This document shows, one piece after another, positions 21,596 through 39,136 of a stretch of 64,000 nt of DNA. Below the pieces are notes generated by a model. That model worked only from the letters and a program-made list of their open reading frames with translations, ran no database searches and was not told where the DNA came from. The translations under genes were made by a program, and so were the position numbers. Source of the stretch: a virus (lineage: Duplodnaviria; Caudoviricetes); IMG/VR virus record IMGVR_UViG_3300033407_000006, positions 1 through 64,000 of that record; one strand, 5' to 3'. The first letter of the stretch is position 1; every line of letters starts with the position of its first letter.

Positions 21596-21617
21596 GGCGG
21601 GCTAAACTATGTTATAA
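21596..21617 (+). other. attI-like half site at head of cassette array A
   Basis: GGCGGGCTAAACTAT-GTTATAA; 20 bp identical to 36881-36900; no R''/L'' half. Confidence 0.6.
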
Positions 21618-21818
21618 GTCGCTCGTCAATTTGAAGTTGAACGGCCTCTCCGGGGTGTAGTGCTCGCGGATTGAGCGGTCACGCTCTCGCAGTTGCTCAA
21701 CGATCCAGGCCTCTGCGAACTTTTCCAGCGTCGGGTAAAAGGTTCGCGTTTTCGTGCTGTCGTTGCCGGTCACGATATAGCCGTTATCAATGCGCTCTAT
21801 CTGTACGTCAATTTCCAT
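21612..21818 (-). CDS. Cassette A1 hypothetical protein
   Basis: 68 aa; TAA stop formed by the GTTA box. Confidence 0.75.
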   Translation of the reverse strand: MEIDVQIERIDNGYIVTGNDSTKTRTFYPTLEKFAEAWIVEQLRERDRSIREHYTPERPFNFKLTSDL

Positions 21819-21839
21819 CAGTACCTCCGTTTAGGCGAC

Positions 21840-21942
21840 TCATAACCCGTCGCTGAAGACGACGCGCAATAGCTGTCGGGTTCGCGTTCGATTCAGTGGT
21901 GCGCCGTCGTCGGCGCGGCGCGTCTTACCTTTGTCGTTATGC
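21840..21942 (+). repeat. attC site A1 (103 bp)
   Basis: TCATAAC-5-GCT(G)AAGAC...GTCTTACC-6-GTTATGC. Confidence 0.8.
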
Positions 21943-22155
21943 GCCAGCATCACCATCCATCAGTCCACAACCAATGGCGCAATCTTCACAGTGAGGGTTT
22001 CCATCACCATCCACAATAGAGTCCTCTTCGCAGTGGCCTGTCGGCTCCTCACATTTGCTGCAAAGCTGCAAAGTTCCAGGGTAGTTATCTGCGTTCCAAT
22101 GGGCGTGCTCCTCTTGCGTCATTGCATGTCTGCGTCCGCCTGGCCATGTGTTCAT
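21937..22155 (-). CDS. Cassette A2 Cys-rich small protein
   Basis: 72 aa, CSKC/CEDC; stop in the R' box. Confidence 0.7.
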   Translation of the reverse strand: MNTWPGGRRHAMTQEEHAHWNADNYPGTLQLCSKCEEPTGHCEEDSIVDGDGNPHCEDCAIGCGLMDGDAGA

Positions 22156-22178
22156 GGTGTTTCTCCTGTCCGCAAGAT

Positions 22179-22197
22179 GTTTAGCTAATTGTTATGC
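22179..22197 (+). other. Degenerate attC / simple recombination site A2
   Basis: GTTTAGC-TAATT-GTTATGC; no matching TAAC or hairpin upstream. Confidence 0.45.
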
Positions 22198-22509
22198 GTA
22201 CAAACATTCACGCCCAGCCATCTCTGCGGAAATCCAGTCTCCATCCATCGCATTTCCATTGATGGCCTTCTCCAGTTGCCGCAGCGTGTCCCGCAAGGAT
22301 TTCTCTAAATCGTTTATCCGGTCTTGCTTTATGCTCACAGTACCCTTCAGCTTCACGTTCTCGTCCCGCAGGTCTTTCAGTTCTGCGGCTATCGTGTCCA
22401 AAAAACCAACTGGATCTGCACTTGCCAACAGATTACCGCCGCTTATCATGTCGGCGAGTCTTCCAAAAGCCGCGTCAATTCTCGCCAGTTTCCCTTTCAT
22501 GCTTCCCAT
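22192..22509 (-). CDS. Cassette A3 coiled-coil hypothetical protein
   Basis: RBS GGAGG before the ATG at 22509; stop in the R' box. Confidence 0.7.
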   Translation of the reverse strand: MGSMKGKLARIDAAFGRLADMISGGNLLASADPVGFLDTIAAELKDLRDENVKLKGTVSIKQDRINDLEKSLRDTLRQLEKAINGNAMDGDWISAEMAGRECLYA

Positions 22510-22526
22510 AGTTTCCTCCAAAATTC

Positions 22527-22592
22527 GCATAACCAGCGGGTCAACTCGGATTGCGCAAACTGCCGCGCAACCGGTTACCCTTGTCGTTATAA
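22527..22592 (+). repeat. attC site A3 (66 bp)
   Basis: GCATAAC-5-GGT(C)AAC...TTGCGC/GCGCAA...GTTACC-6-GTTATAA. Confidence 0.9.
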
Positions 22593-22778
22593 ATCTTTGT
22601 GCGAAAGAGTGGCGGCACGTACGTACTCGCTTGGAGTAATTCCTGCCACCACAGCTTTGCGCTCTACCTCATCCCACTCTTCAGCCGTCCAGCGGGTTTG
22701 CTTAACAACGTCCCGCACAGGTTTGCGGCTGGTCGATCCTTGCGGCCTGCCCCCGCCTCGCCATCCTCCTTTAGGCAT
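22587..22778 (-). CDS. Cassette A4 ribbon-helix-helix DNA-binding protein
   Basis: 'GGGRPQG...TRWTAEEWDEVERKA..AGITPSEYVR'. Confidence 0.7.
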   Translation of the reverse strand: MPKGGWRGGGRPQGSTSRKPVRDVVKQTRWTAEEWDEVERKAVVAGITPSEYVRAATLSHKDL

Positions 22779-23004
22779 GGTCGCCCTCCACAAATGAGCA
22801 TGGTGCATAATCAAGAGGATCTCCACCGAGCATCCCCGGCTTTATGTTCCATCCACAGCGCCAGGGGTCAATCATACTTGCCAGCTCCGAGCGCAGTGCG
22901 TTCTTTTGCAGGACAAAGCCGGTGAATCGCTGCCGGTATCTGCACCCCGCCGCACATTCGGGCGGGGTGCCGGTATTCGTTGGGTCTGCCGGTAGTGGCC
23001 TCAT
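22771..23004 (-). CDS. Cassette A4 small Cys-containing protein
   Basis: ATG overlaps upstream stop (ATGA); coupled to RHH gene. Confidence 0.5.
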   Translation of the reverse strand: MRPLPADPTNTGTPPECAAGCRYRQRFTGFVLQKNALRSELASMIDPWRCGWNIKPGMLGGDPLDYAPCSFVEGDHA

Positions 23005-23189
23005 ACCCACCCCCCAGTTTCTGGGTCATATGCTTGGCGGCCACAAAAAACCGGATCAGGGCTGTGCGAAACGCGCACCAACGAAGCAGCACCAACAAGA
23101 CGGGCAGACTCGAAGCGCAGGTACGCGAGGCCAGCAAGCGGGGTGGAATCAGCGAGGGTGCCATTGATGTGAATTTCATAAGTTTCCAT
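23001..23189 (-). CDS. Cassette A4 small protein
   Basis: 62 aa, RBS AGGAG, behind a strong promoter. Confidence 0.65.
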   Translation of the reverse strand: METYEIHINGTLADSTPLAGLAYLRFESARLVGAASLVRVSHSPDPVFCGRQAYDPETGGWV

Positions 23190-23209
23190 GTTTGTTCTCC
23201 TATGTCGTT

Positions 23210-23249
23210 AAGTTGATTTAAATATATTTCAACTTTGTTTTCTTGTCAA
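23210..23249 (-). promoter_or_regulatory. Internal sigma70 promoter and operator of cassette A4
   Basis: TTGACA-17-TATATT; palindrome AAGTTGA-N12-TCAACTT (23210-23235). Confidence 0.75.
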
Positions 23250-23301
23250 TACAAAAAAACAACTAAACTATTAATTTGCCACGGAAGAGACGCCCAAAGA
23301 T

Positions 23302-23359
23302 TTATAACAAGTCAATCAACCGGATTCGCTACGCTCTCCGGTTATTTCAGTCGTTAGAT
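23302..23359 (+). repeat. attC site A4 (58 bp)
   Basis: TTATAAC-5-AAT(C)AACCGGA...TCCGGTTATT-6-GTTAGAT. Confidence 0.9.
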
Positions 23360-23376
23360 TCTAAATCTGCGCAAAA

Positions 23377-24171
23377 TCAGACAAAGCACATGCCGCTCGA
23401 ACAGTATCCGCCCGCATCGAATAGGGTCGGTTCTGCGGTAAAGTCCACCTGGTCCAGCGGTGTGCATGATCGGTGCAGCCAGGCGCACGGGTCGAACGCC
23501 TGCATTTCCCTCTCGAACGCCACCGCTTGAGCAAATTCGTCCGGTGCGTTCTCCTTCAGGTCTTTCCATTCGTCGTCGGCTTGGTTCGGGCACATCCAGC
23601 AACGCGACCTGGGCGGCTTCGGCCACCCCATCTTCTCGACTTCGCGGATTCCGTGGTGCCTCTTCATCGGCACATCGTGAATCATCGGAAACCGGATAAG
23701 CCCTTTTTCCCATTCCGGCCCCGCCATCATTCGCAAAGCCCGGCGCGTTTCGTCCATGCTGAATCCGATCCACATTTTCACCTTTGAGCGGGTCAAACCG
23801 AATGTCTTGCTCAAAAAACTCTGAATGACTCGGTTTTTCCATTTGCTTGAACAAAACCCCGGCATCTTGCCGACGTTCCCGGTCTCGTCTGTCCATGTTG
23901 GCAAAATCATGGTCTTCCCGCTCGGGTCAAGCCAGTTCGGATCTTTTGCATAATGACCGCCCCACTCATCGCAGCACACACGATGAATTTCTACCCCTAC
24001 CCCTGCCAGTGCAGGCAACGTAACGGCGTTAAGGTATTGCCACGTTGTCCCGCATTCCCGACCAGTGTCGGCAATCACCGCAAGATCCGGCTTCGGCAGC
24101 TTTCCTTGAATTATCAGCGAAGCGATACAGTTGCTTTGCGTCCCGCCTCCGCTGCTAAAAACCTCAACCAT
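23377..24171 (-). CDS. Cassette A5 PAPS-reductase-like (adenine nucleotide alpha hydrolase) protein
   Basis: 'FSSGGGTQS...ADTGRE...PRSRCWMCPNQ'. Confidence 0.8.
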   Translation of the reverse strand: MVEVFSSGGGTQSNCIASLIIQGKLPKPDLAVIADTGRECGTTWQYLNAVTLPALAGVGVEIHRVCCDEWGGHYAKDPNWLDPSGKTMILPTWTDETGNVGKMPGFCSSKWKNRVIQSFLSKTFGLTRSKVKMWIGFSMDETRRALRMMAGPEWEKGLIRFPMIHDVPMKRHHGIREVEKMGWPKPPRSRCWMCPNQADDEWKDLKENAPDEFAQAVAFEREMQAFDPCAWLHRSCTPLDQVDFTAEPTLFDAGGYCSSGMCFV

Positions 24172-24210
24172 TTAACCCCCTATCGGGCTGCGCCCGAGCG
24201 CAGATTTAGA

Positions 24211-24268
24211 ACCTAACCCAGCGGTGAAGCGGATTCGCTCCGCTCTCCGCTTACCTCAATCGTTACCT
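24211..24268 (+). repeat. attC site A5 (58 bp, last of array A)
   Basis: ACCTAAC-5-GGT(G)AAGCGGA...TCCGCTTACC-6-GTTACCT. Confidence 0.9.
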
Positions 24269-24287
24269 TGCAAGTTCTACATTTCAT
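24213..24287 (-). CDS. 24-aa mini-ORF reading through attC A5
   Basis: GGAGG-5-ATG; MKCRTCKVTIEVSGERSESASPLG*. Confidence 0.35.
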   Translation of the reverse strand: MKCRTCKVTIEVSGERSESASPLG

Positions 24288-24433
24288 AGTTGCCTCCAAC
24301 GCCTCAGACCCCGGCGCACAGGGCTGCCGCCAGGGTCGCCGCTGTCCACCTCAATGGCGATCTGGTCGTAGCTGGGCCGTATCCCCGCCGCCGCCTCGCC
24401 TGGGCTGTCAATTTCAAAGATGATTTTCTTCAT
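24284..24433 (-). CDS. Short hypothetical protein, possibly truncated
   Basis: 49 aa; RBS present; stop overlaps mini-ORF ATG. Confidence 0.4.
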   Translation of the reverse strand: MKKIIFEIDSPGEAAAGIRPSYDQIAIEVDSGDPGGSPVRRGLRRWRQL

Positions 24434-24743
24434 AGACCTCTCCCTCGTTCAGCTCTTTTGCCATGCCGAGCGGCCACCAGCGGGATATACAGCCGGGGCT
24501 CCGCATTGAAATGACCATCTCGGACGCTTCGAGCTTATTTAGAAGCCTGCGCGTGTTCTCAATGCTTTTCCCGGCAACTTCGGCGATGCTGACGGTCAAC
24601 GGCCCAATATCAACGGCCACGGCGTCGCCTTTTGAAACGTAGTAGTTCATGCAAAAACTGCTTTTAGCCACATGAGTCCGGCAGCAGGCTTTGAGCGCTT
24701 CGAGAACTTTTTCTGCTTCGGCGGAAATGACTCTGTTTTTCAT
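24414..24743 (-). CDS. Winged-helix-like hypothetical protein
   Basis: 'SIAEVAGKSIENTRRLLNKLEASEMV'. Confidence 0.6.
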   Translation of the reverse strand: MKNRVISAEAEKVLEALKACCRTHVAKSSFCMNYYVSKGDAVAVDIGPLTVSIAEVAGKSIENTRRLLNKLEASEMVISMRSPGCISRWWPLGMAKELNEGEVYEENHL

Positions 24744-24766
24744 GGCTCCCTCCCTTCTATGCCTTC

Positions 24767-24801
24767 AGTATCGCAAAAGGAATTTATCAACCCATTCACT
24801 A
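24767..24801 (-). promoter_or_regulatory. Conserved phage promoter motif, copy 2 (upstream of array A)
   Basis: TAGTGAATGGGTTGATAAATTC-N4-TG-C-GATACT. Confidence 0.65.
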
Positions 24802-24802
24802 T

Positions 24803-27283
24803 TCAATCGTTCCCTGCCAAAATCTTTTTGGCCCGCTCCAGCGCCTCGTTTCTCTCCCGGTCGCTGGCCTCTTCAACCGGCGTGTAATCGACCAAGTAGA
24901 AGAAGCAAACGGTATCGAAAAGGTCCGGGGATTTGATGCCCTGCGAGGCCATTTGATCCTTGGGAAGGATGGAGTAGCGGCCCTTTTCGTCCATCTTGTA
25001 AGGGATTTTGCTGCCCTGCTCCACGATCTTCTTGTTGCGGGGGATATGAATGCGCTGCTGCCTTAAGGCCTCCCTGGCCTGATACGAGGCGTAGGCCCGC
25101 AGGTTCTTGTATCGGCGCTTGTCGGTCTCCGAAAACGGCGGAAGGCCCCAATGGATTGTTTCGCACGGAACGCCCAGCTCTTCGAGCGTCAGGATGACGG
25201 TGCGACCCGGCCCGTCGCCGTCGATTGCAACGGTGATGTTGGGGAAGTCTTGAACCCGCTGATAGATCTCTCGGGCAAAGGCCAATTCGTCCTTGTCCAG
25301 GTATTCGACCGTCTCCACGATATCGACCTTGCGATCCGGGCCGTAGCCGCTCACTTTGGCGATGGACCAAACGGACGAATCCCGGAACTTCCCTTCAGCA
25401 ACGTCTGCGGTCAGAATCCAGCCCCAGGCCTCTTTGTGCTCAATCTGATTGGTCTGCGCATCCTCAAGCCATGATTTCGGAATGAGAAAGCCGCTCATGT
25501 TGTCGGGTAGCCGCCCCAGAACCTTGATCTGGTACTCAGGGCTGTGGTGCCCGCCGTACTCAATCAGCTTCATTTCGATGAATTCGCGGGTGACAAGCGG
25601 ACTTTCTTCGGAGTTGAGATTCAACGTCTTGTAAAGACTGGAGTTTTGCCCCCACGCGTCGGCAAAGTGACCGTTTGCCCGCGTCGGCTGCGAGACCATG
25701 ATATATCGGTTTCCGGCTTGGGTCAGGGCGCCGCGCAAAACGCCGTGAATGACATCATCCACGCCCGAGGCCTCATCCACCACGCACAGGTAATTTTCGT
25801 TGTGCTGGCCCGCCAGTGATTCCGGCTTGGACTTCGAGGCGGTACGGGGGATGACGTACCACGAATCTTTCCAGTGCTTGTTGAAGTACCGCTTTGTTTC
25901 CTTGACGAAGTGGCCCCGCTGGTAAGGGTTGATAGCCTCCACGTCGGCGATGACCTCATCCATGTACTTCCATACGCCCGTGCGGCACTGGTCGATGCTG
26001 TTTGCGGTCAATAGGGCGTTGCTCAAGGGGTAAACGCGAAGATGCCAATCGAAGAGCCAAGCGAGCAGAAAGGTCTTGCCGGTATTATGAAGAACGGTGA
26101 AGTCTCCACCAAGAAATTTGCTGTTTCCGTCGAGGATGAAGCCGTAATAGTCACCTTCGCCTAGTGGAGCGCAGCTTCTTATCCCGAAATTAAGGTTGGG
26201 CCGGTTCTTGTTTCTATCTATCGGTTTCCTTCTTTCTACTCGGACAGGTATCTTGTCGATATTTCTGCCTATGTTGATCCGCCAATAATCTCCCACCGCT
26301 CCGGTGTTGCAGCATTTTTTTCGAGTCTTATTAACTGTAGCATGACAACCAATCGATTTAGCCAGCCACACAATATCTCTTGCGAATCTTTCGCTCTTTT
26401 GAACAACGTCGAATGCTGTGCCCGCGCTTGCTAAAAACCCATCAGTATCAATAATGCCAGCCAAAAGCTCTAGCCTGTCTTGGTATGGCGCAAGCAAGTA
26501 TTTTTTAGGTATGTGCAGTTCATCTGTTAAACCATGTGCTCGAAGAGTTTCGATGAATGGATTGGCCCTCCCTTTTCCTATCCCAATGTGCCACATCCTG
26601 GCTTTGCCGCTCGCCCCCCAATAGGTAAGCCTGTAGCCCTTAGAAACTGCATACCGGCCCCATGCCTCGCTTACTTCTCTATCTGGTGTCGTTATCGTTG
26701 GCGTGTGAATATGTCCATCTCCTAGCCAGAGTCCGAGTATATATGCCGGGATCGGTAGCTCTTCGGGCTCCCAGCCGAAATCATTTACACTCGCCCTGTA
26801 GACAGCATGGCAACGCTTTCTATCGGCTCCCCATTGCAGCCAATCCCTAACCGTCACCTCAGTTTTCTCTCCAGACTCTCTGCGGCCTTTTGAGTTTGTT
26901 GCGACAAGGCAAAGGATATGACTTTCGTTGAAGACGTGGCTAGACCCGTCGTTGTAGGTGAAGCGATACAGCGCCTCCCGGCCACGTTTTAGCGCCAAGA
27001 CGTTTCGCGGCGTACCGTCATCGCCCATAAGGATGTCGCCCACATTCACGCTCTCAACCGGCTTTATCTCGCCGCTATGCAGCATGATTTCGGTTCCAAG
27101 GCCGAAGCAGCCGTGCCCGGACGCTACCGCAACCTGGGCCCCGTGCTCCTGCGCCAAGCGAATGAAATCCTCCTGCTGCCAGGACATCCGCTGTCGACAA
27201 TGGTGATCGACGTAATCCATGAGGTTGTTACGGTAGCGGGCGCAGAAATCGATGTAATCGGGATTGGAAAAGAGGGTGCTCAT
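24803..27283 (-). CDS. pacB: Terminase large subunit with intein
   Basis: Split Walker A 'ASGHG/TGKT', Walker B 'VVDEASGV', RuvC-like 'TADVAEG'; 484 aa after splicing. Confidence 0.92.
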   Translation of the reverse strand: MSTLFSNPDYIDFCARYRNNLMDYVDHHCRQRMSWQQEDFIRLAQEHGAQVAVASGHGCFGLGTEIMLHSGEIKPVESVNVGDILMGDDGTPRNVLALKRGREALYRFTYNDGSSHVFNESHILCLVATNSKGRRESGEKTEVTVRDWLQWGADRKRCHAVYRASVNDFGWEPEELPIPAYILGLWLGDGHIHTPTITTPDREVSEAWGRYAVSKGYRLTYWGASGKARMWHIGIGKGRANPFIETLRAHGLTDELHIPKKYLLAPYQDRLELLAGIIDTDGFLASAGTAFDVVQKSERFARDIVWLAKSIGCHATVNKTRKKCCNTGAVGDYWRINIGRNIDKIPVRVERRKPIDRNKNRPNLNFGIRSCAPLGEGDYYGFILDGNSKFLGGDFTVLHNTGKTFLLAWLFDWHLRVYPLSNALLTANSIDQCRTGVWKYMDEVIADVEAINPYQRGHFVKETKRYFNKHWKDSWYVIPRTASKSKPESLAGQHNENYLCVVDEASGVDDVIHGVLRGALTQAGNRYIMVSQPTRANGHFADAWGQNSSLYKTLNLNSEESPLVTREFIEMKLIEYGGHHSPEYQIKVLGRLPDNMSGFLIPKSWLEDAQTNQIEHKEAWGWILTADVAEGKFRDSSVWSIAKVSGYGPDRKVDIVETVEYLDKDELAFAREIYQRVQDFPNITVAIDGDGPGRTVILTLEELGVPCETIHWGLPPFSETDKRRYKNLRAYASYQAREALRQQRIHIPRNKKIVEQGSKIPYKMDEKGRYSILPKDQMASQGIKSPDLFDTVCFFYLVDYTPVEEASDRERNEALERAKKILAGND
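26084..27109 (-). mobile_element. Intein (342 aa) with LAGLIDADG homing endonuclease
   Basis: Starts CFGLGTEIML, ends VLHN before Thr; 'LGLWLGDG' and 'LAGIIDTDG'; lower GC. Confidence 0.93.
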
Positions 27284-27567
27284 AGATGCAGCCAAGGCTT
27301 TGCGGCGATATCGGGGATCAACTCCAGAAGCTCCCCTTCGGTTGCGATTGAAGCCTCGAACGATTCTCTTCCGGCATGGACGGCAACGCCCCGGCCCCCT
27401 TGCCGGTGATGTGCCGGGCAAAGGGGGATTCTCGGGGCGTTGCCGCGCTTTGAGCCACCGCGCCGGATATGGTGAATTTCAGCCGGTGACGTGCCGTAGC
27501 CGAGGCGGTGACAGGCCATGCAGCCGAACGAGGCGAGTTGCGAATCGGTGAAGTCTGTGTCGGTCAT
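27280..27567 (-). CDS. ref: Ref-like RecA-dependent HNH nuclease
   Basis: 'GCMAC...EIHH...IPLCPAHHR...VH'. Confidence 0.7.
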   Translation of the reverse strand: MTDTDFTDSQLASFGCMACHRLGYGTSPAEIHHIRRGGSKRGNAPRIPLCPAHHRQGGRGVAVHAGRESFEASIATEGELLELIPDIAAKPWLHL

Positions 27568-28196: not shown

Positions 28197-28205
28197 CGTC
28201 TCCTC

Positions 28206-28586: not shown

Positions 28587-28622
28587 TCGTACTCCTTGGG
28601 GCCGGTCAGGATTCCCACTTTC

Positions 28623-29453: not shown

Positions 29454-29462
29454 GGCTCCCTC

Positions 29463-30237: not shown

Positions 30238-30603
30238 TCAGGCCCGATACCATTTGCCATCCCGCCAATGAAAAGGGGCCGGGGCCGTGCCGCCGCGCTT
30301 GGCCTTGTCCACCCAGCGGCGATGCACGGCGCTACAGGTTTTGCACATGCGATATCTGGAGTTCCCGTCGAAGAAATCCCCGTCGCAGCCGACAACGGTG
30401 CAGGGCGTCATCTGCATGCGGCTGATGGAGCCGAAAGTGACTTCCCGCGTCATCTTGCTGGAGACCTCCTGCTCCACGCGCCAGCTACAGAGGCGGCAGC
30501 GCACGACTCGCACCAGAATCATCGCTTCGGTCAGGTAATCGTCTTCCACCACAAGGTTTGACCCTGGGGCCCGGCATTTACCGCAAGCGCAATCACCGGC
30601 CAT
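30238..30603 (-). CDS. Cys-rich Zn-binding hypothetical protein
   Basis: CGKC, CRLC, CTVVGC, CKTC. Confidence 0.55.
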   Translation of the reverse strand: MAGDCACGKCRAPGSNLVVEDDYLTEAMILVRVVRCRLCSWRVEQEVSSKMTREVTFGSISRMQMTPCTVVGCDGDFFDGNSRYRMCKTCSAVHRRWVDKAKRGGTAPAPFHWRDGKWYRA

Positions 30604-31513
30604 CGCCTTCCTCCCATTGCTCAGAGTCTTTGAGGCGGGCCTTGCTCTCTTCGATTTCGGCCCGGCGCTGGGGTACAAACTGCTCCCGCTGCTCTTCGCG
30701 GGCCTTTCGCATCTCGGCAGCCCGGCGCTCCAGCTCTTCCGTTGAAGGCGGCTTGGCGAACCTGTCTTCGAGGCCTTCTTCCTTCATGATCGCCAGTTCC
30801 AGCACCTTGGGCAGGGGCAGCCCCAGGCAAGCGAACTCGAAGCCGCCTTCCTTGGCCGTGATCTCCCCGCTCTGAACCCGTCGCAGGATCTTGGCCTGGG
30901 CATCGGTGACGCGCTGGTGCGCCTCGCTGAAGAGCTTCTGATACCGACCCATCATCTCGCGGGCCTTCTGAACGTCGTGGGCCTTCACCTTGACTTTGCG
31001 GACCCGGCCCAGGACGGGATTGCCTTCGGCGTCGGTGTCGATTTCCTCCAACACCTCTTCCACGTCGATTTCCCGGATCTGGGCAAGCTGGTCCGGGGTC
31101 GCCTTCTTCAGGTTGAGGATCGGCATGCCGCGCTCGTCCACGTCGAAGAAATCGAACATGCTGGCCCGCGCCGTATTGGAAATCAGGCGCAAATTCTCAT
31201 CAATGGTAAGAATCGCCTCTTTTTCCCGCCCGGCTATCAGTTCTTTCATGAGTTCTGCAACTTGAACCTTTTTAAACAAGGCGCTGGCCTTGGTCCCGGC
31301 AGAGCTTTTGGAGTAGTTGGTGTAGATTTTCAGATAAGCGTTGGTCATGGAAAGCGTCGGATCTTTGACGCGCTCCATGACGACAAGCCAATCCTTATGG
31401 GTAAGGCCGTAGCTGTTGCGTTTTACTGTAGGCTCTCGTTTTTTCTGGGTTTTTTTCTTCGCGGCAGGTTTTTTAGGCGCTGGTTTCGTGGCCCGTGCTT
31501 TCTTTTCAGTCAC
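30593..31513 (-). CDS. pacA: Terminase small subunit
   Basis: Terminase_2-like N-terminus ('ASMFDFF...AHDVQKAREMMGRYQKLF'); PacA-like C-terminus. Confidence 0.7.
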   Translation of the reverse strand: MTEKKARATKPAPKKPAAKKKTQKKREPTVKRNSYGLTHKDWLVVMERVKDPTLSMTNAYLKIYTNYSKSSAGTKASALFKKVQVAELMKELIAGREKEAILTIDENLRLISNTARASMFDFFDVDERGMPILNLKKATPDQLAQIREIDVEEVLEEIDTDAEGNPVLGRVRKVKVKAHDVQKAREMMGRYQKLFSEAHQRVTDAQAKILRRVQSGEITAKEGGFEFACLGLPLPKVLELAIMKEEGLEDRFAKPPSTEELERRAAEMRKAREEQREQFVPQRRAEIEESKARLKDSEQWEEGDGR

Positions 31514-31706
31514 GGGCCCCTCCATCCACAAAGTCGAACCAGTTTTCTTTCCAGCGGTCCAGGTCCGTGACGCGCCCGCACCAGTGCCCTCCGATTTTGA
31601 CGATGGGGATGTCGAGCCGCGCCTTCCACTTCTTGACCCAAGTGGGGGATCTGCCGATATGGTCGGCGATTGCCACCATTCCCCAGATTTTGCCGTCGCG
31701 TGTCAT
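31506..31706 (-). CDS. Excisionase/AlpA-like HTH protein
   Basis: 'IADHIGRSPTWVKKW...IPIVKIGGHW'. Confidence 0.65.
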   Translation of the reverse strand: MTRDGKIWGMVAIADHIGRSPTWVKKWKARLDIPIVKIGGHWCGRVTDLDRWKENWFDFVDGGARD

Positions 31707-31926
31707 GCCTTCCTCCTTTTAAAGCCTTATTGCTGAATAACAATGAAAAATCAAGCACTTTTCCAGATTGAAATAACGCGGCGGTGCGCCAGCTTCCGTG
31801 TTGCTTTGCGGTATCCAATGCGGCGGATGATGCCCATGTGAGAGGCGGCAATGAACAGGCCGCCCCATGCGTTCGGGTGCGGCGGGTCGCCAACATTTCC
31901 TGCAATTTGCCATGAGCTACCCCCCT

Positions 31927-32991: not shown

Positions 32992-33003
32992 TTCTTCCCT
33001 CCG

Positions 33004-33339
33004 CTACACGGTTTTGATGATGACAGGGTACAGGTCTTCTACCTGGGCCCGCTTGAGTTTGAAGGTTTCGGTCTCAAATCCCTTGGTATCCACGAAATGA
33101 ACGGTGCCATCCGCGTGAAACTCTTGGAAATCGATGACGTACCGGATATTCCCCGGTAGATGAAAAGGCACTTGCCGCAGGAAGAAAAGAACCTCCCCGG
33201 CCTTCTGTCTTAGCTTCAGCTCGCTGTAGTACCGCGCCTCTTTCTTGGAATCGAAGCGGATGCCGTCAACGACAACGGCCTGTGCGGCGTACTTGCTTTT
33301 CTTCTGGCCCGTGAATTTGTGCCGGACGATTCTGGTCAC
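33004..33339 (-). CDS. DUF1064-like PD-(D/E)XK nuclease
   Basis: 'DGIRFDSKKEARYY...YVIDF...VDTKG'. Confidence 0.8.
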   Translation of the reverse strand: MTRIVRHKFTGQKKSKYAAQAVVVDGIRFDSKKEARYYSELKLRQKAGEVLFFLRQVPFHLPGNIRYVIDFQEFHADGTVHFVDTKGFETETFKLKRAQVEDLYPVIIKTV

Positions 33340-33351
33340 TTGAGCTGCCTT

Positions 33352-33735
33352 TCAGTGGATTGTCTTCGATTGTGGCACATTGAATTTGTCATCCCATTCA
33401 CTAAAATCGTGGTCCCTCGACAAATCTGCGCCGCGATTGATGCCGAAGTGCTCCGACGAATGGTATTTGCCGCGCCCGAGGAAAAAGCCGTTGAGCCCCT
33501 GGGTCTGGAGCTTGCGGAAAAACGTGGGGTAGGGCACGTCCATCAACTCCGCAGCCTTGCGGCGGGAATAGCCCTGTTGGGCGAGTTCCTGAACGGCGTC
33601 TTTATCCAGCAGCCGGGAAGCCTCCAAGCACTCGCGGGAACAATAGCGCTGGTGCATCCGGCTTTCGGTGACGTGGAATTTCTGCCTGCATCGCTCGTTC
33701 TCGCACTCAACGGCGTACCTTGTGTGTCTACGCAT
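33352..33735 (-). CDS. Zn/HTH hypothetical protein
   Basis: 'YCSREC', 'GYSRRKAAELMDVPYPTF'. Confidence 0.6.
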   Translation of the reverse strand: MRRHTRYAVECENERCRQKFHVTESRMHQRYCSRECLEASRLLDKDAVQELAQQGYSRRKAAELMDVPYPTFFRKLQTQGLNGFFLGRGKYHSSEHFGINRGADLSRDHDFSEWDDKFNVPQSKTIH

Positions 33736-34012
33736 CTCCCTGCCCCCTTCTGGTTTTCATGGACGCTGCCGCGCCGCGCCGGGCGTAGGTTCTCAGGGAC
33801 GTTGCCCATTTGCGGCCCGCTGGCTTCGATGACTTCTTCGCCAGCTTGTCCATGCTCTGCGCCTGGGTGCATCCGGCGCACAGCTCTCCGTTGTCTCCGT
33901 TGCGGTACTGCTCGCAGGCGAAGGGGGCGATCCTGGCGTTGTGCAGATCGCACTTGACCGCGTTTTTCTCCAACCATTCCTCCTGGTGCGTCTTGTCCAT
34001 GGTTCCCTCCAT
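33728..34012 (-). CDS. Cys-rich hypothetical protein
   Basis: 94 aa. Confidence 0.55.
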   Translation of the reverse strand: MEGTMDKTHQEEWLEKNAVKCDLHNARIAPFACEQYRNGDNGELCAGCTQAQSMDKLAKKSSKPAGRKWATSLRTYARRGAAASMKTRRGQGDA

Positions 34013-34135
34013 GTCAAAGTTTTGAAATTTCAGTTTTAAGGCCGATATTTTTTTCGGGCCCTTGCCTTGGTATGTCTTCCTCGGCCTTTTGCGGCCCTAG
34101 GGGTCATTCTGTGCCGACTGCGTTGATTTACGGTC

Positions 34136-34939
34136 TTACTCTGTGAGGGCTGAAGATAATTTTTTTTGCAAATCGGACTTGAGCTTCTCTTTCCGGTCTC
34201 GGATTTGAGCTATTTCCTGCCTAAGCTCTTCGTCCTTCATCCGCCGCTGCTGTTCATCACGAATTCTGCCCTTCTCTTCCAGGTCTTCGCGCAGCTTGCG
34301 AAGTTTCGCCAGAAAGACCGGCTTCAGGTTTTCAGTGGGTTGTTCAGCCCCGGCCACCATGGAAATGAGAGCCCGGCCTTCCGCAGTCGTATCCTGTTGC
34401 AGCAGGTTGGAGACAGCGGCCCTGGGCAAAATCCCTTGTTCAACCGCCTCCCGCGCCACGGCTGCGCGGTGTTCCGGGTCAAAGCCTTCGGAGAGATACC
34501 AGCGAGCCAGCCCGCCTCGTTCTTTTGCGCGAGCAACCGCCCGGTCGTATGCGTCCCGAAAGCAAACCCTCGCCCCAACCTCATCCCCGCTCTGAAAAAT
34601 CGCCCGGCATGCGCTCCAGGCTTCCAAAATCTCCGGGCAGATGACGGCACTCTTGCTCTCGTCCGACAAGCCGAGCGCCTTTGCCCAGGCCTCGTTGCCG
34701 GACAAAAAGCCGTCAGGGTTTTCGGCTTCAATCGCTTCGATGAAATCGGCGGGGAGGGGGAAAGTCCGAAACTTGTGAGTTCGGCTCACCCTCTCTATCG
34801 CCCGAAAAACTTTGTCCTTGCCGTAGGGGGCCAGAATGTCCTCATAGGCCCGGATTTTGGTTGCAGAGACATCAACGCTGATTAACTCCGACAAGGCAAA
34901 GAGTCTGCACCCTATCGCCTTCCTGGTTTCCTCGTTCAT
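34136..34939 (-). CDS. Replication protein P-like (helicase loader-type)
   Basis: 'FPLPADF...EAW...GDEVGARVCFRDAY'; follows the initiator gene. Confidence 0.65.
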   Translation of the reverse strand: MNEETRKAIGCRLFALSELISVDVSATKIRAYEDILAPYGKDKVFRAIERVSRTHKFRTFPLPADFIEAIEAENPDGFLSGNEAWAKALGLSDESKSAVICPEILEAWSACRAIFQSGDEVGARVCFRDAYDRAVARAKERGGLARWYLSEGFDPEHRAAVAREAVEQGILPRAAVSNLLQQDTTAEGRALISMVAGAEQPTENLKPVFLAKLRKLREDLEEKGRIRDEQQRRMKDEELRQEIAQIRDRKEKLKSDLQKKLSSALTE

Positions 34940-35874
34940 CGGCCCTCCATGTATCGCCGGAACTCTTCCCGGTTCCGATCCGTCGTTGTGGCGGCGCGGC
35001 CTGCGTTGTTTTTAGCGCCACCACGGTCCTGCTCCCTTGAAAGCCAATTGACAAGGAACGCCTTGATCCCGCTTTTGGTTTTCCGACGCTTGGGGTTCGC
35101 GTCCGACCATGCCGCTGCCTTGCGAAGCTCCTGCAACACATCGACCGCCGGGAAAAGCTGCGTCCACTGGTCAATGTCCGACTGCGGGACGTGGTGCGCC
35201 TCGCCCCCTACCAGTGGGATCTGAATCACTGATCCGCCCTCGGGGGGCAAGACTTCGATGGTCGGCTCTGAGTTTTGCTCAGAGCAAGAATCTTCGTAAG
35301 AAGATTCCTCTCCTTTTGTTTTTAAAGGAGAAGGAGAAGGAGAAGGAGAAGGAGAAGGGGTTCGGTCGAACGTCCGAACGCTGCGTTCGGGGTTGTTCGA
35401 TTTTCGTTGCGTAACATCTTGATTTTTACGGCTTTCTGTTTTTGCTTCGTTCGGGCTGTTTTTGGTGGTCGTTCGGGAGCCGTTCGGGAGAGGTTGCGCG
35501 GTCCCTTTTTGTGCCTTTCGAGCCGCCGCACTTGCCTTCCCGGCCTTCCTTGCAGCCGCCTTTCTTTGCTCACCGTTTACCGCCCAAGGCTGGTGTTCTT
35601 CCCAATCTTTCGGGGCGTACCCGTTGGGTGTTTCGATCAGGAACTTTGCTTCGAGCATGCCCCTTACGAACACGCCGGGCTCCCCTTCCCAGCCAGCAAC
35701 GTCTTCAATGTCTTCGTTCGACCACCCGTTCAACACTCCGTTCGGGCGTTGTTCGGCAACTGTGGTCCAGAAGCAGATCAGGTTTTCCATGGCGGTGGGG
35801 CCCACCATGCGTCGCAATCGCTTGAATTTCCTATGTCTCGGCAATTTCACGTCTATGCGAATGTCAGTGTTCAT
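34936..35874 (-). CDS. Phage replication initiator (lambda O-like)
   Basis: N-terminal wHTH, SPSPSP linker, C-terminal 'KRRKT...FLVNWL'. Confidence 0.75.
   Translation of the reverse strand: MNTDIRIDVKLPRHRKFKRLRRMVGPTAMENLICFWTTVAEQRPNGVLNGWSNEDIEDVAGWEGEPGVFVRGMLEAKFLIETPNGYAPKDWEEHQPWAVNGEQRKAAARKAGKASAAARKAQKGTAQPLPNGSRTTTKNSPNEAKTESRKNQDVTQRKSNNPERSVRTFDRTPSPSPSPSPSPLKTKGEESSYEDSCSEQNSEPTIEVLPPEGGSVIQIPLVGGEAHHVPQSDIDQWTQLFPAVDVLQELRKAAAWSDANPKRRKTKSGIKAFLVNWLSREQDRGGAKNNAGRAATTTDRNREEFRRYMEGR
35361..35490. repeat. Iteron-like repeats, probable lytic origin
   Basis: CGTTCGG at 35384, 35448, 35470, 35481 (CGTTCGGGAG twice) plus an inverted copy at 35374, inside the initiator gene. Confidence 0.5.
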
Positions 35875-35896
35875 TGGCTCAACCTAGTGCCTGGAG

Positions 35897-36094
35897 TTAT
35901 TTCAAATCTGCATACCCTGGAACCTTCTTTGCTTCTTCTTCAAGTTGGCGGATTTTCTTGCGGTGCGCTGTTTGCGGCTCATGGTTTTCATTCTCCCATG
36001 TCCGCCAGGTGTTGCGGTGAACTTTAACCCTGGAAGCGGCTTGCTCCTGCGTCAATTCCAGCGCTTCCCGGATAAGCTCAAATCGGTTTTTCAT
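35897..36094 (-). CDS. XRE HTH protein
   Basis: 'LELTQEQAASRVKVHRNTWRTWE'; own TTGACG-18-TACAGT promoter. Confidence 0.75.
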   Translation of the reverse strand: MKNRFELIREALELTQEQAASRVKVHRNTWRTWENENHEPQTAHRKKIRQLEEEAKKVPGYADLK

Positions 36095-36190
36095 GGCTTG
36101 GCCTTTCTTTTATTGTTGTTCTTTTTCTTACACTGTAAGGCGCACGAATGCCAGCCGTCAATCCCTTTTTCGCAAAAACGCGAAAAGGTC

Positions 36191-36538
36191 TCAGCTCATG
36201 CCGTAGCCGCGCTGCTCAGAGCGCCTGCTTGCCTCTCTGGTGCGCAGCAACTCCGCTTCGAGGCTCACTCCCTCCATGCGGACGCGCAGCGACTCATAGG
36301 CGATTGTGGCCCGCTCCAAGTCGTCCAGATAGACCATGTACCCGTCACTGGCGTAGGCCTCCCGCTCCTGTGCCGCCGCTGTCTTGTGGCCCTCCTTCCC
36401 GGCTTGCACCATTTCGAGCGCAAGCCGGGTTTTTTTCATCTCTTCGAGCTTCTTCATGCGGGCTTTGGCAACGGGGATTTCGGCGGCGCAGCGGCGATAC
36501 TCCGACATCAGCCTTTCAATTTTTATGTCAAGATCCAT
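36191..36538 (-). CDS. Coiled-coil phage protein
   Basis: 'AAQEREAYAS..Y', common phage family. Confidence 0.65.
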   Translation of the reverse strand: MDLDIKIERLMSEYRRCAAEIPVAKARMKKLEEMKKTRLALEMVQAGKEGHKTAAAQEREAYASDGYMVYLDDLERATIAYESLRVRMEGVSLEAELLRTREASRRSEQRGYGMS

Positions 36539-36541
36539 GCG

Positions 36542-36637
36542 TTACCGGCACGGGCTGTAGCCGCAATGGGGGTAGATAGGGCACCCTCCTTGCGGGATCA
36601 TTTTGTTGCCGCAGTCGGGGCAGGTTGTAGCCTTCAT
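36542..36637 (-). CDS. Mini Zn-ribbon protein (31 aa)
   Basis: CPDCG...GGC...CGYSPC; overlapping start and stop. Confidence 0.45.
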   Translation of the reverse strand: MKATTCPDCGNKMIPQGGCPIYPHCGYSPCR

Positions 36638-36834
36638 TCGTCAACTTCCTCCTTCATAAATTCATGGTACGGGCTGCCATTGATGAGTCCGTGCATGGCG
36701 TCTTCCCTGGCACCTTCTGAGCGGTAGCGTCTGAAGACAATCCATTCGTCGCCGTAGAGGCGTTGCCCGTTTTTGTCCGGCTTGCTCCGGTACAGAATCG
36801 CATAGGGCTTTCGATGTTGAGGGCGGTAGGCCAT
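36634..36834 (-). CDS. Hypothetical protein
   Basis: 66 aa, RBS AAGGAG. Confidence 0.6.
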   Translation of the reverse strand: MAYRPQHRKPYAILYRSKPDKNGQRLYGDEWIVFRRYRSEGAREDAMHGLINGSPYHEFMKEEVDE

Positions 36835-36880
36835 AAGGCTCCTTCATTCTTGGTTTGGACCGGAATTAGACGGCCAGATC

Positions 36881-36902
36881 GGCGGGCTAAACTATGTTAT
36901 GC
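36881..36902 (+). other. attI-like half site at head of cassette array B
   Basis: GGCGGGCTAAACTAT-GTTATGC. Confidence 0.6.
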
Positions 36903-37133
36903 CTTAAAGCCGTACGATTTACGGCCCCTCCCAAAAGGTCCGGCATTTATCCTCTCCTCCCCTGCTCGCGCTGTCCACTTCGCCTTCCAAATTTTCTTCC
37001 CAGGCTCGGTATCTTGTGTTCCCTCAATGACATCCCCACCCCAAGCTTTTTCGATAGCCTCGGCTTCGGTGGCTGCCTCAACGCAACACATTGTTTGGGT
37101 GCTTTCGTAGCCTTCCACGTAAAAAATAGGCAT
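36897..37133 (-). CDS. Cassette B1 hypothetical protein
   Basis: ATG inside the R'' box, SD (AAGGA) inside attC B1, stop in the R' box. Confidence 0.7.
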   Translation of the reverse strand: MPIFYVEGYESTQTMCCVEAATEAEAIEKAWGGDVIEGTQDTEPGKKIWKAKWTARAGEERINAGPFGRGRKSYGFKA

Positions 37134-37187
37134 AACCAATCCTTTCAGCGGACTCGCTCCGCTCGCGGCTGAAGTCAGTTGTTAGGC
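37130..37187 (+). repeat. attC site B1 (58 bp)
   Basis: GCATAAC-5-CTT(T)CAGC...GCTGAAG-6-GTTAGGC. Confidence 0.85.
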
Positions 37188-37510
37188 AGCCCCAACAGTT
37201 GCCGAGCCGCCGCAATGTCGGCAGCGGTCACGCCGGTCGGCACGCTCTTGTACTCAAGGTCGCGCTTCAAGCCGTCCCATGCTTTGTGTAGCGCCATCAC
37301 GCCTTCATGGTGTTCTTGGCTCAGGTAGCAGCAGCCAGGCGCCGAGAAACCCCCTCCGTCAGCCACCAGCGTTTCGAGATCAATCCGCTCGCGGTTGTCG
37401 AGTTGAGCCCACTTGCGGCCGACCTTCGTCACTGTCACTTCTCGTGGCAGCGCGTGCCGCTGGCTTTGCGGCACCCACCAAAGTATTTGCCCTTCCGTCA
37501 GTTTTTCCAT
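37175..37510 (-). CDS. Cassette B2 hypothetical protein
   Basis: 111 aa, 'VTVTKVGRKWA' phage family motif. Confidence 0.75.
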   Translation of the reverse strand: MEKLTEGQILWWVPQSQRHALPREVTVTKVGRKWAQLDNRERIDLETLVADGGGFSAPGCCYLSQEHHEGVMALHKAWDGLKRDLEYKSVPTGVTAADIAAARQLLGLPNN

Positions 37511-37521
37511 TCTCCGATCCC

Positions 37522-37613
37522 TTCTAACTTATCGTTGCAGGCGACCGCCGAACAGCCGCCTATAGCTTCCTCTTGCGCTCCTGCGCGGCGTCGCCTGAAC
37601 TCAGACGTTATCT
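37522..37613 (+). repeat. attC site B2 (92 bp)
   Basis: TTCTAAC-5-GTT(G)CAGGCGAC...GTCGCCTGAAC-6-GTTATCT. Confidence 0.88.
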
Positions 37614-37811
37614 GCTCAGTGCCTCACCGATAGCGGTTACCAAATTACTTTGATCTTGGCTTTTGCACTCAATGTGTGGCAGCGCATCGGTCAGCATTTT
37701 TCTAAGGGTTTCGTTTTCTTCCCTCAACTCATCCGAGCAGGCCCGCGACATCCGCAGGTGCATTTCAATGTCGGTGATTTTGTCTACTAACTCTCTTTCT
37801 CGTTTGTCCAC
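37608..37811 (-). CDS. Cassette B3 coiled-coil small protein
   Basis: GGAGG-6-GTG; stop in the R' box. Confidence 0.65.
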   Translation of the reverse strand: MDKRERELVDKITDIEMHLRMSRACSDELREENETLRKMLTDALPHIECKSQDQSNLVTAIGEALSR

Positions 37812-37824
37812 TTTTGACCTCCGC

Positions 37825-37889
37825 AGATAACCAATCGTTGCAAGCGGACTCGGCAAACTGCGCCGAGCCCTTGACCTCAGTCGTTATGC
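37825..37889 (+). repeat. attC site B3 (65 bp)
   Basis: AGATAAC-5-GTT(G)CAAG...CTCGGC/GCCGAG...CTTGACC-6-GTTATGC. Confidence 0.88.
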
Positions 37890-38152
37890 AACTCGTCACC
37901 GCCCCACGGCGCTCCCGACTCCCGCAACGCCAACTTGAGCGGCAGAAGCGTGCATACATCACCGTCGGCCAGGTGGCCGTTTGCGTCGAGCGTCTGGCAA
38001 ATTGCGGCGCGCAGCCTTTCAACTTCCGCCGAAAGAATCTCGGCAATATCCACACTGCCGTAACCGCTGCCGGTCATGTCGTCATCTTCGTCGGTCGGCC
38101 CGGCTATCTCGTAGCAAAGGCGCCTCGCCAAATCTATGCTGCCTCGTTTCAT
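37877..38152 (-). CDS. Cassette B4 hypothetical protein
   Basis: 91 aa, RBS GGAGG. Confidence 0.65.
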   Translation of the reverse strand: MKRGSIDLARRLCYEIAGPTDEDDDMTGSGYGSVDIAEILSAEVERLRAAICQTLDANGHLADGDVCTLLPLKLALRESGAPWGGDELHND

Positions 38153-38167
38153 TTCTCAACCTCCGTT

Positions 38168-38235
38168 GCATAACCCGGCAGTCCACCTGACCTGCCGCAT
38201 AAAGCCGCGTCAGTCAGGTGACTTTTGCGTTAGGG
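38168..38235 (+). repeat. attC site B4 (68 bp)
   Basis: GCATAAC-5-AGT(C)CACCTGAC...GTCAGGTGACT-5-GTTAGGG. Confidence 0.9.
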
Positions 38236-38424
38236 TGCTTCGGGGCGGCTCTGTTTTGCGTACAGCTCCAGCCACGCAAAAGCCAAACCCGGCGGGCGTC
38301 TCCCGCTCGGCCCGTCATCTTCCCAACTCTGCCAAGTGCGGTACGGTGTCCCCGTCAACCTGGCCGCTTCTGCCATAGAGAGACCCGACTTCTGCCGGGT
38401 CTCTCTCAGTTCCTTGGCAGTCAC
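38230..38424 (-). CDS. Cassette B5 XRE HTH protein
   Basis: 'ELRETRQKSGLSMAEAARLTGTPYRTWQSWE'; GTGA overlap with upstream gene. Confidence 0.75.
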   Translation of the reverse strand: MTAKELRETRQKSGLSMAEAARLTGTPYRTWQSWEDDGPSGRRPPGLAFAWLELYAKQSRPEAP

Positions 38425-38657
38425 TGGTTGCCATCCGGACGGACGATTTCTGCCCCTTCCTCGACAAGACGGGAGCAAAGGTCAATACACTCCTGACTTC
38501 CTACTCCATAGCCAATTTTTCCGCGCAGTTCGTCGGGGACAGGACAGGCCGCGACCCCTTCGTCACTCATTGGATCGCCGTCGTAACTTTTGACCTGTTC
38601 CGCATTCGCCGGCCAGCAGAATTGTCCGTCATTCATTACTACGTATTTGCTTTTCAT
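38421..38657 (-). CDS. Cassette B5 small protein
   Basis: 78 aa, RBS AAGGAG, behind a strong promoter. Confidence 0.7.
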   Translation of the reverse strand: MKSKYVVMNDGQFCWPANAEQVKSYDGDPMSDEGVAACPVPDELRGKIGYGVGSQECIDLCSRLVEEGAEIVRPDGNQ

Positions 38658-38706
38658 GGCTGTACTCCTTCTGGTTTGGGTTATTTGTTCCGCTTTCTTG
38701 ATTCTA

Positions 38707-38756
38707 ATTATATGCACATTGTGACTGATTGCAAGTAAAATAATTCACTTTGTGCA
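38707..38756 (-). promoter_or_regulatory. Internal sigma70 promoter and operators of cassette B5
   Basis: TTGCAA-16-TATAAT; inverted pair TGCACATTGTGA / TCACTTTGTGCA. Confidence 0.75.
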
Positions 38757-38781
38757 TTTTTATTTGAGCGGCGCAAAATCA

Positions 38782-38850
38782 CCCTAACCAGTCGGTCAAT
38801 CGGACCGTCGCGAAAGTGCCGCGCCGATCCGCTTACCTTTATCGTTAGTT
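38782..38850 (+). repeat. attC site B5 (69 bp)
   Basis: CCCTAAC-5-GGT(C)AATCGGA...TCCGCTTACC-6-GTTAGTT. Confidence 0.88.
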
Positions 38851-39096
38851 TGCTTGTGGCACTTCCAGCGGCCCGTACCACTTCCCACCGATCTTATTGA
38901 CACGCTCGCGGTAGCCGGTAAGCGGGCGGCACCCAACAAAACCACACGCGGCTTTAATGACTTGGTAAATTTCTACGCTGTTCGCCCTTCCTCCGCCGTC
39001 ATCGTTCCAATAAAAACCTTCGGCGGTCGGTTCCTCTTTCGACCAGCGCAAACTAACACCAGTTTCGAGCGGACGGTTTTCACTTTCCGTTTCCAT
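38845..39096 (-). CDS. Cassette B6 hypothetical protein; RBS and first 15 codons lie inside attC B6
   Basis: GGAGGAGG and ATG in the attC loop; stop in the R' box. Confidence 0.7.
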   Translation of the reverse strand: METESENRPLETGVSLRWSKEEPTAEGFYWNDDGGGRANSVEIYQVIKAACGFVGCRPLTGYRERVNKIGGKWYGPLEVPQAN

Positions 39097-39136
39097 GGGT
39101 TGCGGCCTCCTCCGCCGCTCAAACTAAACGTTAGGC
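39051..39136 (+). repeat. attC site B6 (86 bp, last of array B)
   Basis: AACTAAC-5-TTT(C)GAGCGG...CCGCTCAAA-6-GTTAGGC. Confidence 0.85.

Follow-up and report, generated by a model that had tools for sequence, protein, structure and literature searches.

In class 1 and chromosomal integrons, the gene of each cassette lies on the top strand of its attC recombination site with the attC at the 3' end of the gene, and selectivity for the attC's bottom strand is held to place promoterless genes correctly behind the cassette promoter (Pc) (Nivina et al. 2016, PMC5027507). Groups of at least two attC sites separated by less than 4 kb on one strand, with no integron integrase nearby, are designated clusters of attC sites lacking integron integrases (CALINs) (Cury et al. 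2016). CALINs have already been published for phages (Qi, Rajabal, Ghaly, Tetu, and Gillings 2023, PMC9892861). The phage genomes described by Qi et al. have attC arrays of canonical R''/L''/L'/R' structure without intI; the paper calls the cassettes of phages TJE1 and PH101 typical in structure, and mirrored polarity is not remarked there. The subject of the present analysis is a 64,000-nucleotide stretch of DNA (the window), the first 64 kb of a 74,876-bp IMG/VR virus record (IMGVR_UViG_3300033407_000006; Duplodnaviria, Caudoviricetes) with 127-bp direct terminal repeats. This soil phage carries integron gene cassettes in two rows, designated arrays A and B, with ten complete attC sites and a shared attI-like head, in contrast to the 2 to 4 sites in the examples figured by Qi et al. 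The cassette genes are all on the minus strand, the direction of phage transcription, and the attC top strand is the plus strand. Thus, it is highly probable that each mobile unit mirrors the textbook cassette.

RESULTS AND DISCUSSION

Structure of the attC sites

The window holds two CALINs whose attC sites have the canonical structure. Array A has four sites and array B has six, all on the plus strand and 0.3 to 0.9 kb apart, with no integron integrase. With no intI, the arrays do not constitute a complete integron. The sites are imperfect TAAC...GTTA palindromes with a core of 52 to 97 nt (n = 10) and are confined to the two arrays. A symmetric scan for TAAC...GTTA with paired arms recovered nine sites, all in 21.8 to 24.3 kb or 37.5 to 39.1 kb, and the same scan recovered 0 to 6 sites in shuffled genomes. 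The tenth site (37133-37184) was found through a repeat search. An Rfam search of the window at gathering thresholds returned no family.

All ten sites share one geometry on the plus strand: TAAC, a 5-nt spacer, three pairs, one unpaired base, six pairs, a variable center, nine pairs, a 6-nt spacer, and GTTA. In this structure 95.4% of the cells are paired and six pairs covary (changed on both sides), whereas control structures slid by 1 to 3 columns have only 20 to 46% of cells paired. Two pairs are mismatched in attC B3. The original prediction, made from the sequence alone, placed an extrahelical base in the left L box on the plus strand of the ten attCs, and the alignment bears this out in 10 of 10 sites. 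The extra base of the left arm follows the third L'' position, and this position and the 5-nt versus 6-nt spacers are the same as in the aadA1 attC. Which base is found there varies more than at canonical sites: on the top strand it is C in five sites, G in four, and T in one, compared with C in 22 of 24 canonical sites that were aligned. The spacers are 64% pyrimidine on the top strand, and the unpaired parts of the bottom strand are therefore purine rich, a skew of the kind reported for attC sites (Nivina et al. 2016, PMC5027507).

Assignment of the top strand

Two covariance models were used to assign the top strand. Model R1 was built from the ten sites of the window on the plus strand, and model R2 was built from class 1, TJE1, and bacterial-array attCs with no sequence from the window. 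R1 scored its own ten sites at 49 to 66 bits on the plus strand, with a best minus-strand score of 10 bits. R2 found exactly ten sites in the window on the plus strand, at 20.3 to 48.8 bits (E values from 0.017 to 3.7e-9), with a maximum of 13.8 bits on the minus strand. The sites of array A, with R1 and R2 scores in bits on the plus strand, are attC A1 (21840-21942; 56.0 and 30.8), attC A2 (22527-22592; 55.5 and 20.3), attC A3 (23302-23359; 59.3 and 45.9), and attC A4, the last of the array (24211-24268; 59.5 and 41.6). Those of array B are attC B1 (37130-37187; 57.4 and 44.2), attC B2 (37522-37613; 48.9 and 42.9), attC B3 (37825-37889; 56.1 and 30.8), attC B4 (38168-38235; 60.0 and 48.8), attC B5 (38782-38850; 66.3 and 46.9), and attC B6, the last of the array (39051-39136; 49.3 and 33.6).

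The orientation called by R1 was compared with that of known arrays. R100 and two Klebsiella plasmids were fetched via the aadA1 attC, which is 100% identical in 1,962 plasmids. R1 matched the attCs of aadA1, aadA2, psp, cmlA1, qacL, aadB, and estX downstream of intI1, in each case on the strand that carries the cassette genes. Scores were 31 to 44.5 bits for six of these (aadA1, 44.5 bits) and 14.9 bits for estX, compared with 9 to 12 bits on the opposite strand. In Tetrasphaera phage TJE1, a published phage CALIN of canonical (sense) layout, R1 placed a site on the gene strand at the 3' end of each of orf1 to orf3, three in all.

The architecture of the arrays points in the same direction. 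At the left of both arrays there is a lone GTTA box in a 20-mer, and at the right there is a complete attC, which is the order attI-cassette-attC when read on the plus strand. The head of array A (21596-21615, plus strand) is a 20-bp attI-like site, GGCGGGCTAAACTATG/TTAT (the slash marks the crossover), with a lone R box and no hairpin. The head of array B (36881-36900, plus strand) is the identical 20-mer, and the identity between the two head sites stops at the crossover. The 20-mer resembles the attI1 simple site CCCTAAAACAAAG/TTA, as read from R100, and had no exact match in the viral or genome contig collections searched. Because R1, R2, and the array architecture agree, together with the pyrimidine skew of the spacers, the plus strand is the canonical top strand. 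A covariance model assigning the minus strand as top had been named as the result that could overturn this orientation; when the searches were run, both models called plus.

In a side observation, the extended R'/R'' boxes often read GTTATGC (for example, at 21936, 22191, 36896, and 37883, and at 22527, 37130, and 38168) rather than the consensus GTTRRRY. On the coding strand such a box gives GCATAA, an alanine codon and a stop, at the cassette end, and an ATG inside R'' at the start.

Coding strand of the cassette genes

Counting open reading frame (ORF) ends at the boxes cannot give the orientation of the genes because TAAC closes frames from both sides. Codon scoring and homology were used instead. 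Codon log-odds were positive for the minus-strand ORFs and negative for plus-strand ORFs; in every cassette either the minus-strand ORF was favored or no call was made, and the plus strand was called in none. The codon model was trained on this phage, is rough on foreign DNA, and miscalled the cmlA1 cassette through its overlap filter. Most of the minus-strand ORFs are preceded by a strong Shine-Dalgarno sequence at the right distance, and near-identical proteins are called on other contigs for several of them. The original prediction counted 14 cargo ORFs, all on the minus strand. The strand held for all of them, but the count is 13 firm ORFs, the fourteenth, in cassette A4, being uncertain. 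Thus, the canonical polarity, with the gene on the attC top strand and the attC 3' of the gene, is not found in either array, as all 13 or 14 ORFs are on the bottom strand. The proposal that the recombinogenic strand is the coding strand is supported in that the canonical bottom strand is the minus strand, that of the cassette ORFs, although this equivalence is predicted from sequence.

The ORFs of array A, all on the minus strand, begin with that of cassette A1 (21612-21818; 68 amino acids [aa]), identified by sequence and codon scoring, whose TAA stop is the TTA of the head GTTA. A 72-aa ORF (21937-22155), found as an exact protein on four contigs, stops in the GTTA of attC A1. A lone GTTATGC box without a hairpin (22191-22197, plus strand) separates it from a coiled-coil-like ORF of 105 aa (22192-22509), which stops in that lone GTTA and has GGAGG 5 nt before its ATG. 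This ORF can be extended to 22530, but its start is more likely the ATG at 22509 behind the GGAGG than the ATG in R''. A NikA-like ribbon-helix-helix ORF (22587-22826; Pfam PF21983, E = 2.7e-8), with a likely start at ATG 22778, stops in the GTTA of attC A2. The 62-aa ORF of cassette A4 (23001-23189; Shine-Dalgarno AGGAG) is behind the cassette's own sigma-70-like promoter (23221-23249, minus strand; TTGACA, 17 nt, TATATT), which was found in a promoter scan and has 11 of 12 matches. Cassette A5 has a PAPS reductase-like ORF of 264 aa (23377-24171; phrog_424, E = 3.9e-27).

In array B, also on the minus strand throughout, the 78-aa ORF of cassette B1 (36897-37133) starts at an ATG in R'' of attC B1 and stops in the head GTTA. 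It is followed by a Phage_ProQ_C_like ORF of 111 aa (37175-37510; Pfam PF24203, E = 1.1e-15) with a TGA stop in the attC B1 spacer, a 67-aa ORF (37608-37811) with a GTG start behind GGAGG and a stop in the GTTA of attC B2, and a 91-aa ORF (37877-38152) with a TGA stop in the attC B3 spacer and homologues in attC arrays of other phages and bacteria. Cassette B5 has two genes. The first is a 78-aa ORF (38421-38657), preceded by a second sigma-70-like promoter from the same scan (38707-38734, minus strand; TTGCAA, 16 nt, TATAAT); the other is a helix-turn-helix ORF (38230-38424; Pfam HTH_31; phrog_2104) whose start (GTGA) overlaps the upstream ORF's stop and whose stop is in the GTTA of attC B4. 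The helix-turn-helix match is also listed under the ORF limits 38230-38478. The 83-aa ORF of cassette B6 (38845-39096) stops in the GTTA of attC B5 and starts inside attC B6.

Translation signals in the attC boxes

Eight ORFs end in the TTA of a GTTA box (21612, 21937, 22192, 22587, 36897, 37608, 38230, and 38845), as had been predicted. However, the box was thought to be that of the neighboring cassette, and since the crossover is between G and TTA, the TAA stop is the cassette's own first triplet. The only stops inside a neighbor's attC are the two TGA codons, at 37175 and 37877, which fall in the conserved TCAGTx spacer, and here the predicted location in the adjacent spacer was correct. 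It was also correct that cassette B1 takes its translation start from attC B1: the ATG is that of GTTATGC (R'' on the minus strand), and AAGGA is within the L'' box. For cassette B6, the Shine-Dalgarno sequence (GGAGGAGG) is in the center of attC B6 as proposed, and the number of codons inside the site is about 14 rather than 15. Several other Shine-Dalgarno sequences fall within a few bases after the R'' box. Read on the coding strand, a cassette therefore consists of the attC hairpin, a Shine-Dalgarno sequence, the gene, and TAA, with the crossover directly after the stop.

These cassettes share the attC geometry, the G/TTRRRY crossover box, a start complementing the cassette's own R'', and an attI-like head before the first cassette with canonical class 1 and chromosomal cassettes. 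They differ in that the gene is on the bottom strand with the attC at its 5' end, the stop codon is the first cassette triplet, and there is no intI and no Pc. The promoter scan found no promoter reading from a head site into an array, and transcription would enter from the far end of the array instead.

Cassettes as putative mobile units

The start of a cassette complements the flank of its own R'' over 9 to 20 nt (with at most one mismatch) in 10 of the 11 cassette/site pairs, cassette B2 having 6 nt, compared with 5 to 8 nt between the two boxes of a single hairpin. For example, the cassette start at 23353-23372 recurs as a 20-nt inverted repeat in the R'' flank of attC A4. Such complementarity is the classical footprint of circularization, but it says nothing about orientation.

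Cassette and backbone proteins also differ in their occurrence elsewhere. Of four backbone proteins examined, three are singletons at 90% identity and one shares its cluster with only one further member, from a record of the same length. Three cassette proteins cluster at 90% identity or more with proteins on other contigs. attC A2 is 90% identical to a segment of another viral contig (L123:2830-2910) that has unrelated ORFs on both sides. Conservation extends to the Shine-Dalgarno segment beside R'', and the hairpin may move together with the ribosome site as one module.

Depth data for part of the window come from contigs of the one DNA sequencing run listed, probably the source; no RNA run is listed. 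The interior of the cassette at 22192-22521 has a depth of 18.2, and contig paths of 12.4 and 5.4 join there, the two branch points being 22190, which falls at the lone GTTA, and 22521, shortly before the R'' box of attC A2. This is a weak hint that the cassette is also present in a second context in the same soil sample. Contigs hide rare forms, and those of the source run cover nothing in 35.6 to 40 kb except for one 38-nt piece.

Mirrored arrays in other genomes

The original prediction was that this layout had not been described. In the literature searched, there was indeed no account of wholly antisense cassette arrays or of the stop-in-crossover pattern, but published phage CALINs do have the layout, without comment on it. 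Pseudoalteromonas phage H101/PH101 has its attCs on the plus strand and every annotated gene on the minus strand, and ctTUS972 has attCs on the minus strand and genes on the plus strand. Phage P12002L gave no model match at E values of 0.01 or less. CALIN attC sites from virulent phages recombine with attI1 through IntI1 (Qi et al. 2023, PMC9892861). The bottom strands are in the forward primers of Table S3 of that study, as checked with the aadA7 control, and the PH101_attC2 reverse primer is the plus strand of the record. Therefore, the PH101 bottom strand that recombined well with IntI1 in their study is the coding strand of the PH101 genes.

Homologues of the ORF at 37877-38152 were found on 37 viral contigs, 6 of which carry arrays of model hits. 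On these six contigs, 29 of the 30 hits run antisense to the probe gene, and ORFs on the gene strand stop in the TAAC at the R' end of the hairpin. Codon scoring called 13 of their cassettes antisense and none sense, with 8 undecided. No IntI was found in five related viral records, one of which has only a generic tyrosine recombinase match of 28 bits. PAPS reductase homologues had no attC at any of 27 viral loci, and 5 of 80 metagenome loci had an antisense attC; the relatives in the metagenome scan were all at 62% identity or less.

Casimicrobiaceae and Thermomonas metagenome-assembled genomes (MAGs) encode a true IntI (>480 bits), and their arrays hold both sense and antisense ORFs. The homologue of the 91-aa ORF at 37877-38152 is a cassette antisense to the attCs in the Thermomonas MAG and is located just past the last attC in the Casimicrobiaceae MAG. 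Judging from these two arrays and general background, antisense cassettes in bacteria are probably a minority among sense ones. Several more cassettes in the Casimicrobiaceae array (L153) and the Thermomonas array (L155) look antisense, and the mirrored share in some chromosomal arrays may be sizeable. The Casimicrobiaceae array also has a Phd/YefM-YoeB-like toxin-antitoxin pair (L153:512-1014, plus strand) antisense to its attCs.

Antisense cassettes with toxin-antitoxin genes are known from Vibrio cholerae, and the orientation of those in its array was tabulated by Richard et al. (2024, PMC13108822). Like the bacterial antisense cassettes, which have their own promoters, the cassettes of the phage have genes that run against the attC polarity, and A4 and B5 have promoter-like sites. 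The difference is that all cassettes in the phage are antisense and most lack their own promoter.

One further viral record (IMGVR_UViG_3300020049_002037) has an attC (L147:3100-3153, minus strand) with arms almost identical to those of the clinical class 1 aadA1/aadA7 type; it is antisense to the local genes.

Alternative explanations

It is possible that the arrays are an inert relic, a piece of a bacterial array that was gained by illegitimate recombination, no longer recombines, and has its polarity by accident. The phage lacks an integrase, there is no direct sign of recombination in this lineage, and off-target and illegitimate recombination have been proposed for phage CALINs (Qi et al., PMC9892861). 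However, a captured bacterial array should hold some sense ORFs, as the MAG and class 1 arrays do, and here 0 of 13 or 14 ORFs are sense. Furthermore, the cargo that can be identified is of phage type (Phage_ProQ_C_like and the PAPS reductase of phrog_424), the same head site is present in two separate arrays, the cognate R'/R'' complementarity is intact, and the layout was found again in at least eight other phage records. Therefore, we consider an inert relic unlikely.

Recombination by some enzyme that is not a classical IntI (a host Xer-like recombinase, another tyrosine recombinase, or an unrecognized phage enzyme, for instance) would mean that the top/bottom rule might not apply. The geometry of the sites is identical to that of class 1 attCs, including the 5- and 6-nt spacers and the position of the unpaired base, relatives of one cassette are located in genomes with a true IntI, and the PH101 sites of the same layout recombine with IntI1. 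These findings make this explanation somewhat less credible than the relic, even though neither this phage nor the five related viral records have an IntI and half of the sites lack the conserved G as the unpaired base.

That the hairpins are ordinary terminators or repetitive extragenic palindromic (REP)-like elements that resemble attC, or that the minus strand is the true top strand and the layout canonical, is very improbable and was rejected on the basis of model scores, covariation, and array architecture: TAAC...GTTA palindromes look alike from both sides, and an ORF coming from either side meets TAA first, but the models give the plus strand 20 to 66 bits and the minus strand no more than 14 bits, class 1 and TJE1 attCs are oriented correctly by these models, the hairpins have no T-run and terminator-like matches are no more common than in shuffled sequence, covariation backs the asymmetric structure, and both arrays run from a lone head site on the left to a complete attC on the right.

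Several points weigh against the interpretation of the arrays as functional mirror-image cassettes. R1 and R2 are home-made covariance models. The two arrays represent two orientation events, not fourteen, and uniform orientation is expected within an array or operon. The related contigs were found via homologous cassette genes and thus are not fully independent. The role of the head 20-mer as an attI is putative, drawn from its position and its likeness to attI1. The unpaired base is a bottom-strand G in only 5 of 10 sites, compared with 22 of 24 canonical sites, which could lower recognition by some integrases. A search of IMG/VR with the TerL-like protein found no close relative of the phage backbone, and INPHARED gave distant matches only.

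Proposed mechanism and significance

No candidate for a tyrosine recombinase or IntI was found in the whole 74.9-kb record with the TIGR02249 integron-integrase profile, which matched ordinary tyrosine recombinases in 14 of 14 control genomes. Because the phage appears to have no tyrosine recombinase, we propose that the host supplies in trans an integron integrase that excises and inserts the mirrored cassettes, with exchange by attC x attC recombination and by recombination of attC with the 20-bp head site. The folded bottom strand would be the sense (non-template) strand. Expression would be by read-through of the phage operon from the end of the array far from the head site, aided by the two promoters within cassettes A4 and B5. 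Phage cassettes would then be silent behind a host Pc and host cassettes would be silent in the phage, so that one enzyme could serve both cassette pools while they remained functionally separate. Were replication to proceed in the direction of the genes, the bottom (sense) strand would also be the lagging-strand template. The lagging-template configuration raises cassette excision in Vibrio from <7e-5 to 3e-2 (Richard et al. 2024, PMC13108822).

Genomic insertion of cassettes takes place at 5'-GWT-3', with orientation determined by which strand bears the site (Loot et al., bioRxiv 2022.09.11.507474). A TAA-C stop offers G/TTA on the opposite strand. A likely origin of the mirrored cassettes is the integrase-mediated insertion of attC-bearing circles at G/TTA sites made by TAA-C stops on the opposite strand. 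Such an insertion would put an attC directly behind the stop in antisense polarity, and the antisense polarity and the stop-in-crossover pattern would follow automatically. Two such insertions would make the phage gene between them a mobilizable mirror cassette. The experiments of Loot et al. were in E. coli chromosomes, and insertion of this type is invoked here only as a proposed origin of the coincidence of stop and crossover.

A broader possibility, which is advanced tentatively and which we would put at somewhat below even odds, is that phages keep their own pool of mirror-image cassettes, born at TAA-C stops, which are traded between phages and occasionally left in host arrays through host integron integrases, and that the polarity is adaptive. 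The gain might come in three ways. The cassettes would be readable by phage operons; the recombinogenic strand would be on the sense, possibly lagging-template, strand, where excision is frequent; and neither phage nor host cassettes would be expressed in the platform of the other.

In integron theory, bottom-strand selectivity serves the placement of genes behind Pc. The recurrence of arrays that are wholly the wrong way round in unrelated phages suggests that the same sites serve a second expression logic. If this were confirmed, phages would be active users of host integrases and themselves a reservoir of cassettes, part of the antisense cassettes in bacterial arrays would be explained, and the old question of how cassettes are born would gain a concrete possible answer. 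Surveys that take only same-strand ORFs upstream of attC would also mis-assign phage cassettes.

Genomic context of the arrays

The minus strand carries nearly all of the genes of the window, and the setting of both arrays is the early, recombination, and packaging gene block of the phage. A PacB-like large terminase (24803-27421, minus strand), a small-terminase-like gene, an exonuclease, a replication initiator, and SbcCD-like genes are located between and around the arrays. Just past the last attC of array B there are two small ORFs (39202-39702, minus strand), of 83 aa with CxxC zinc-ribbon motifs and of 81 aa. They have no attC of their own and may be original backbone beside the head site or decayed cassettes. 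The large terminase has 37% identity to P1 PacB across its C-terminal half. Together with the small-terminase-like gene (30593-31531, minus strand), it places the packaging genes between the arrays, amid replication and recombination genes, which is an unusual location.

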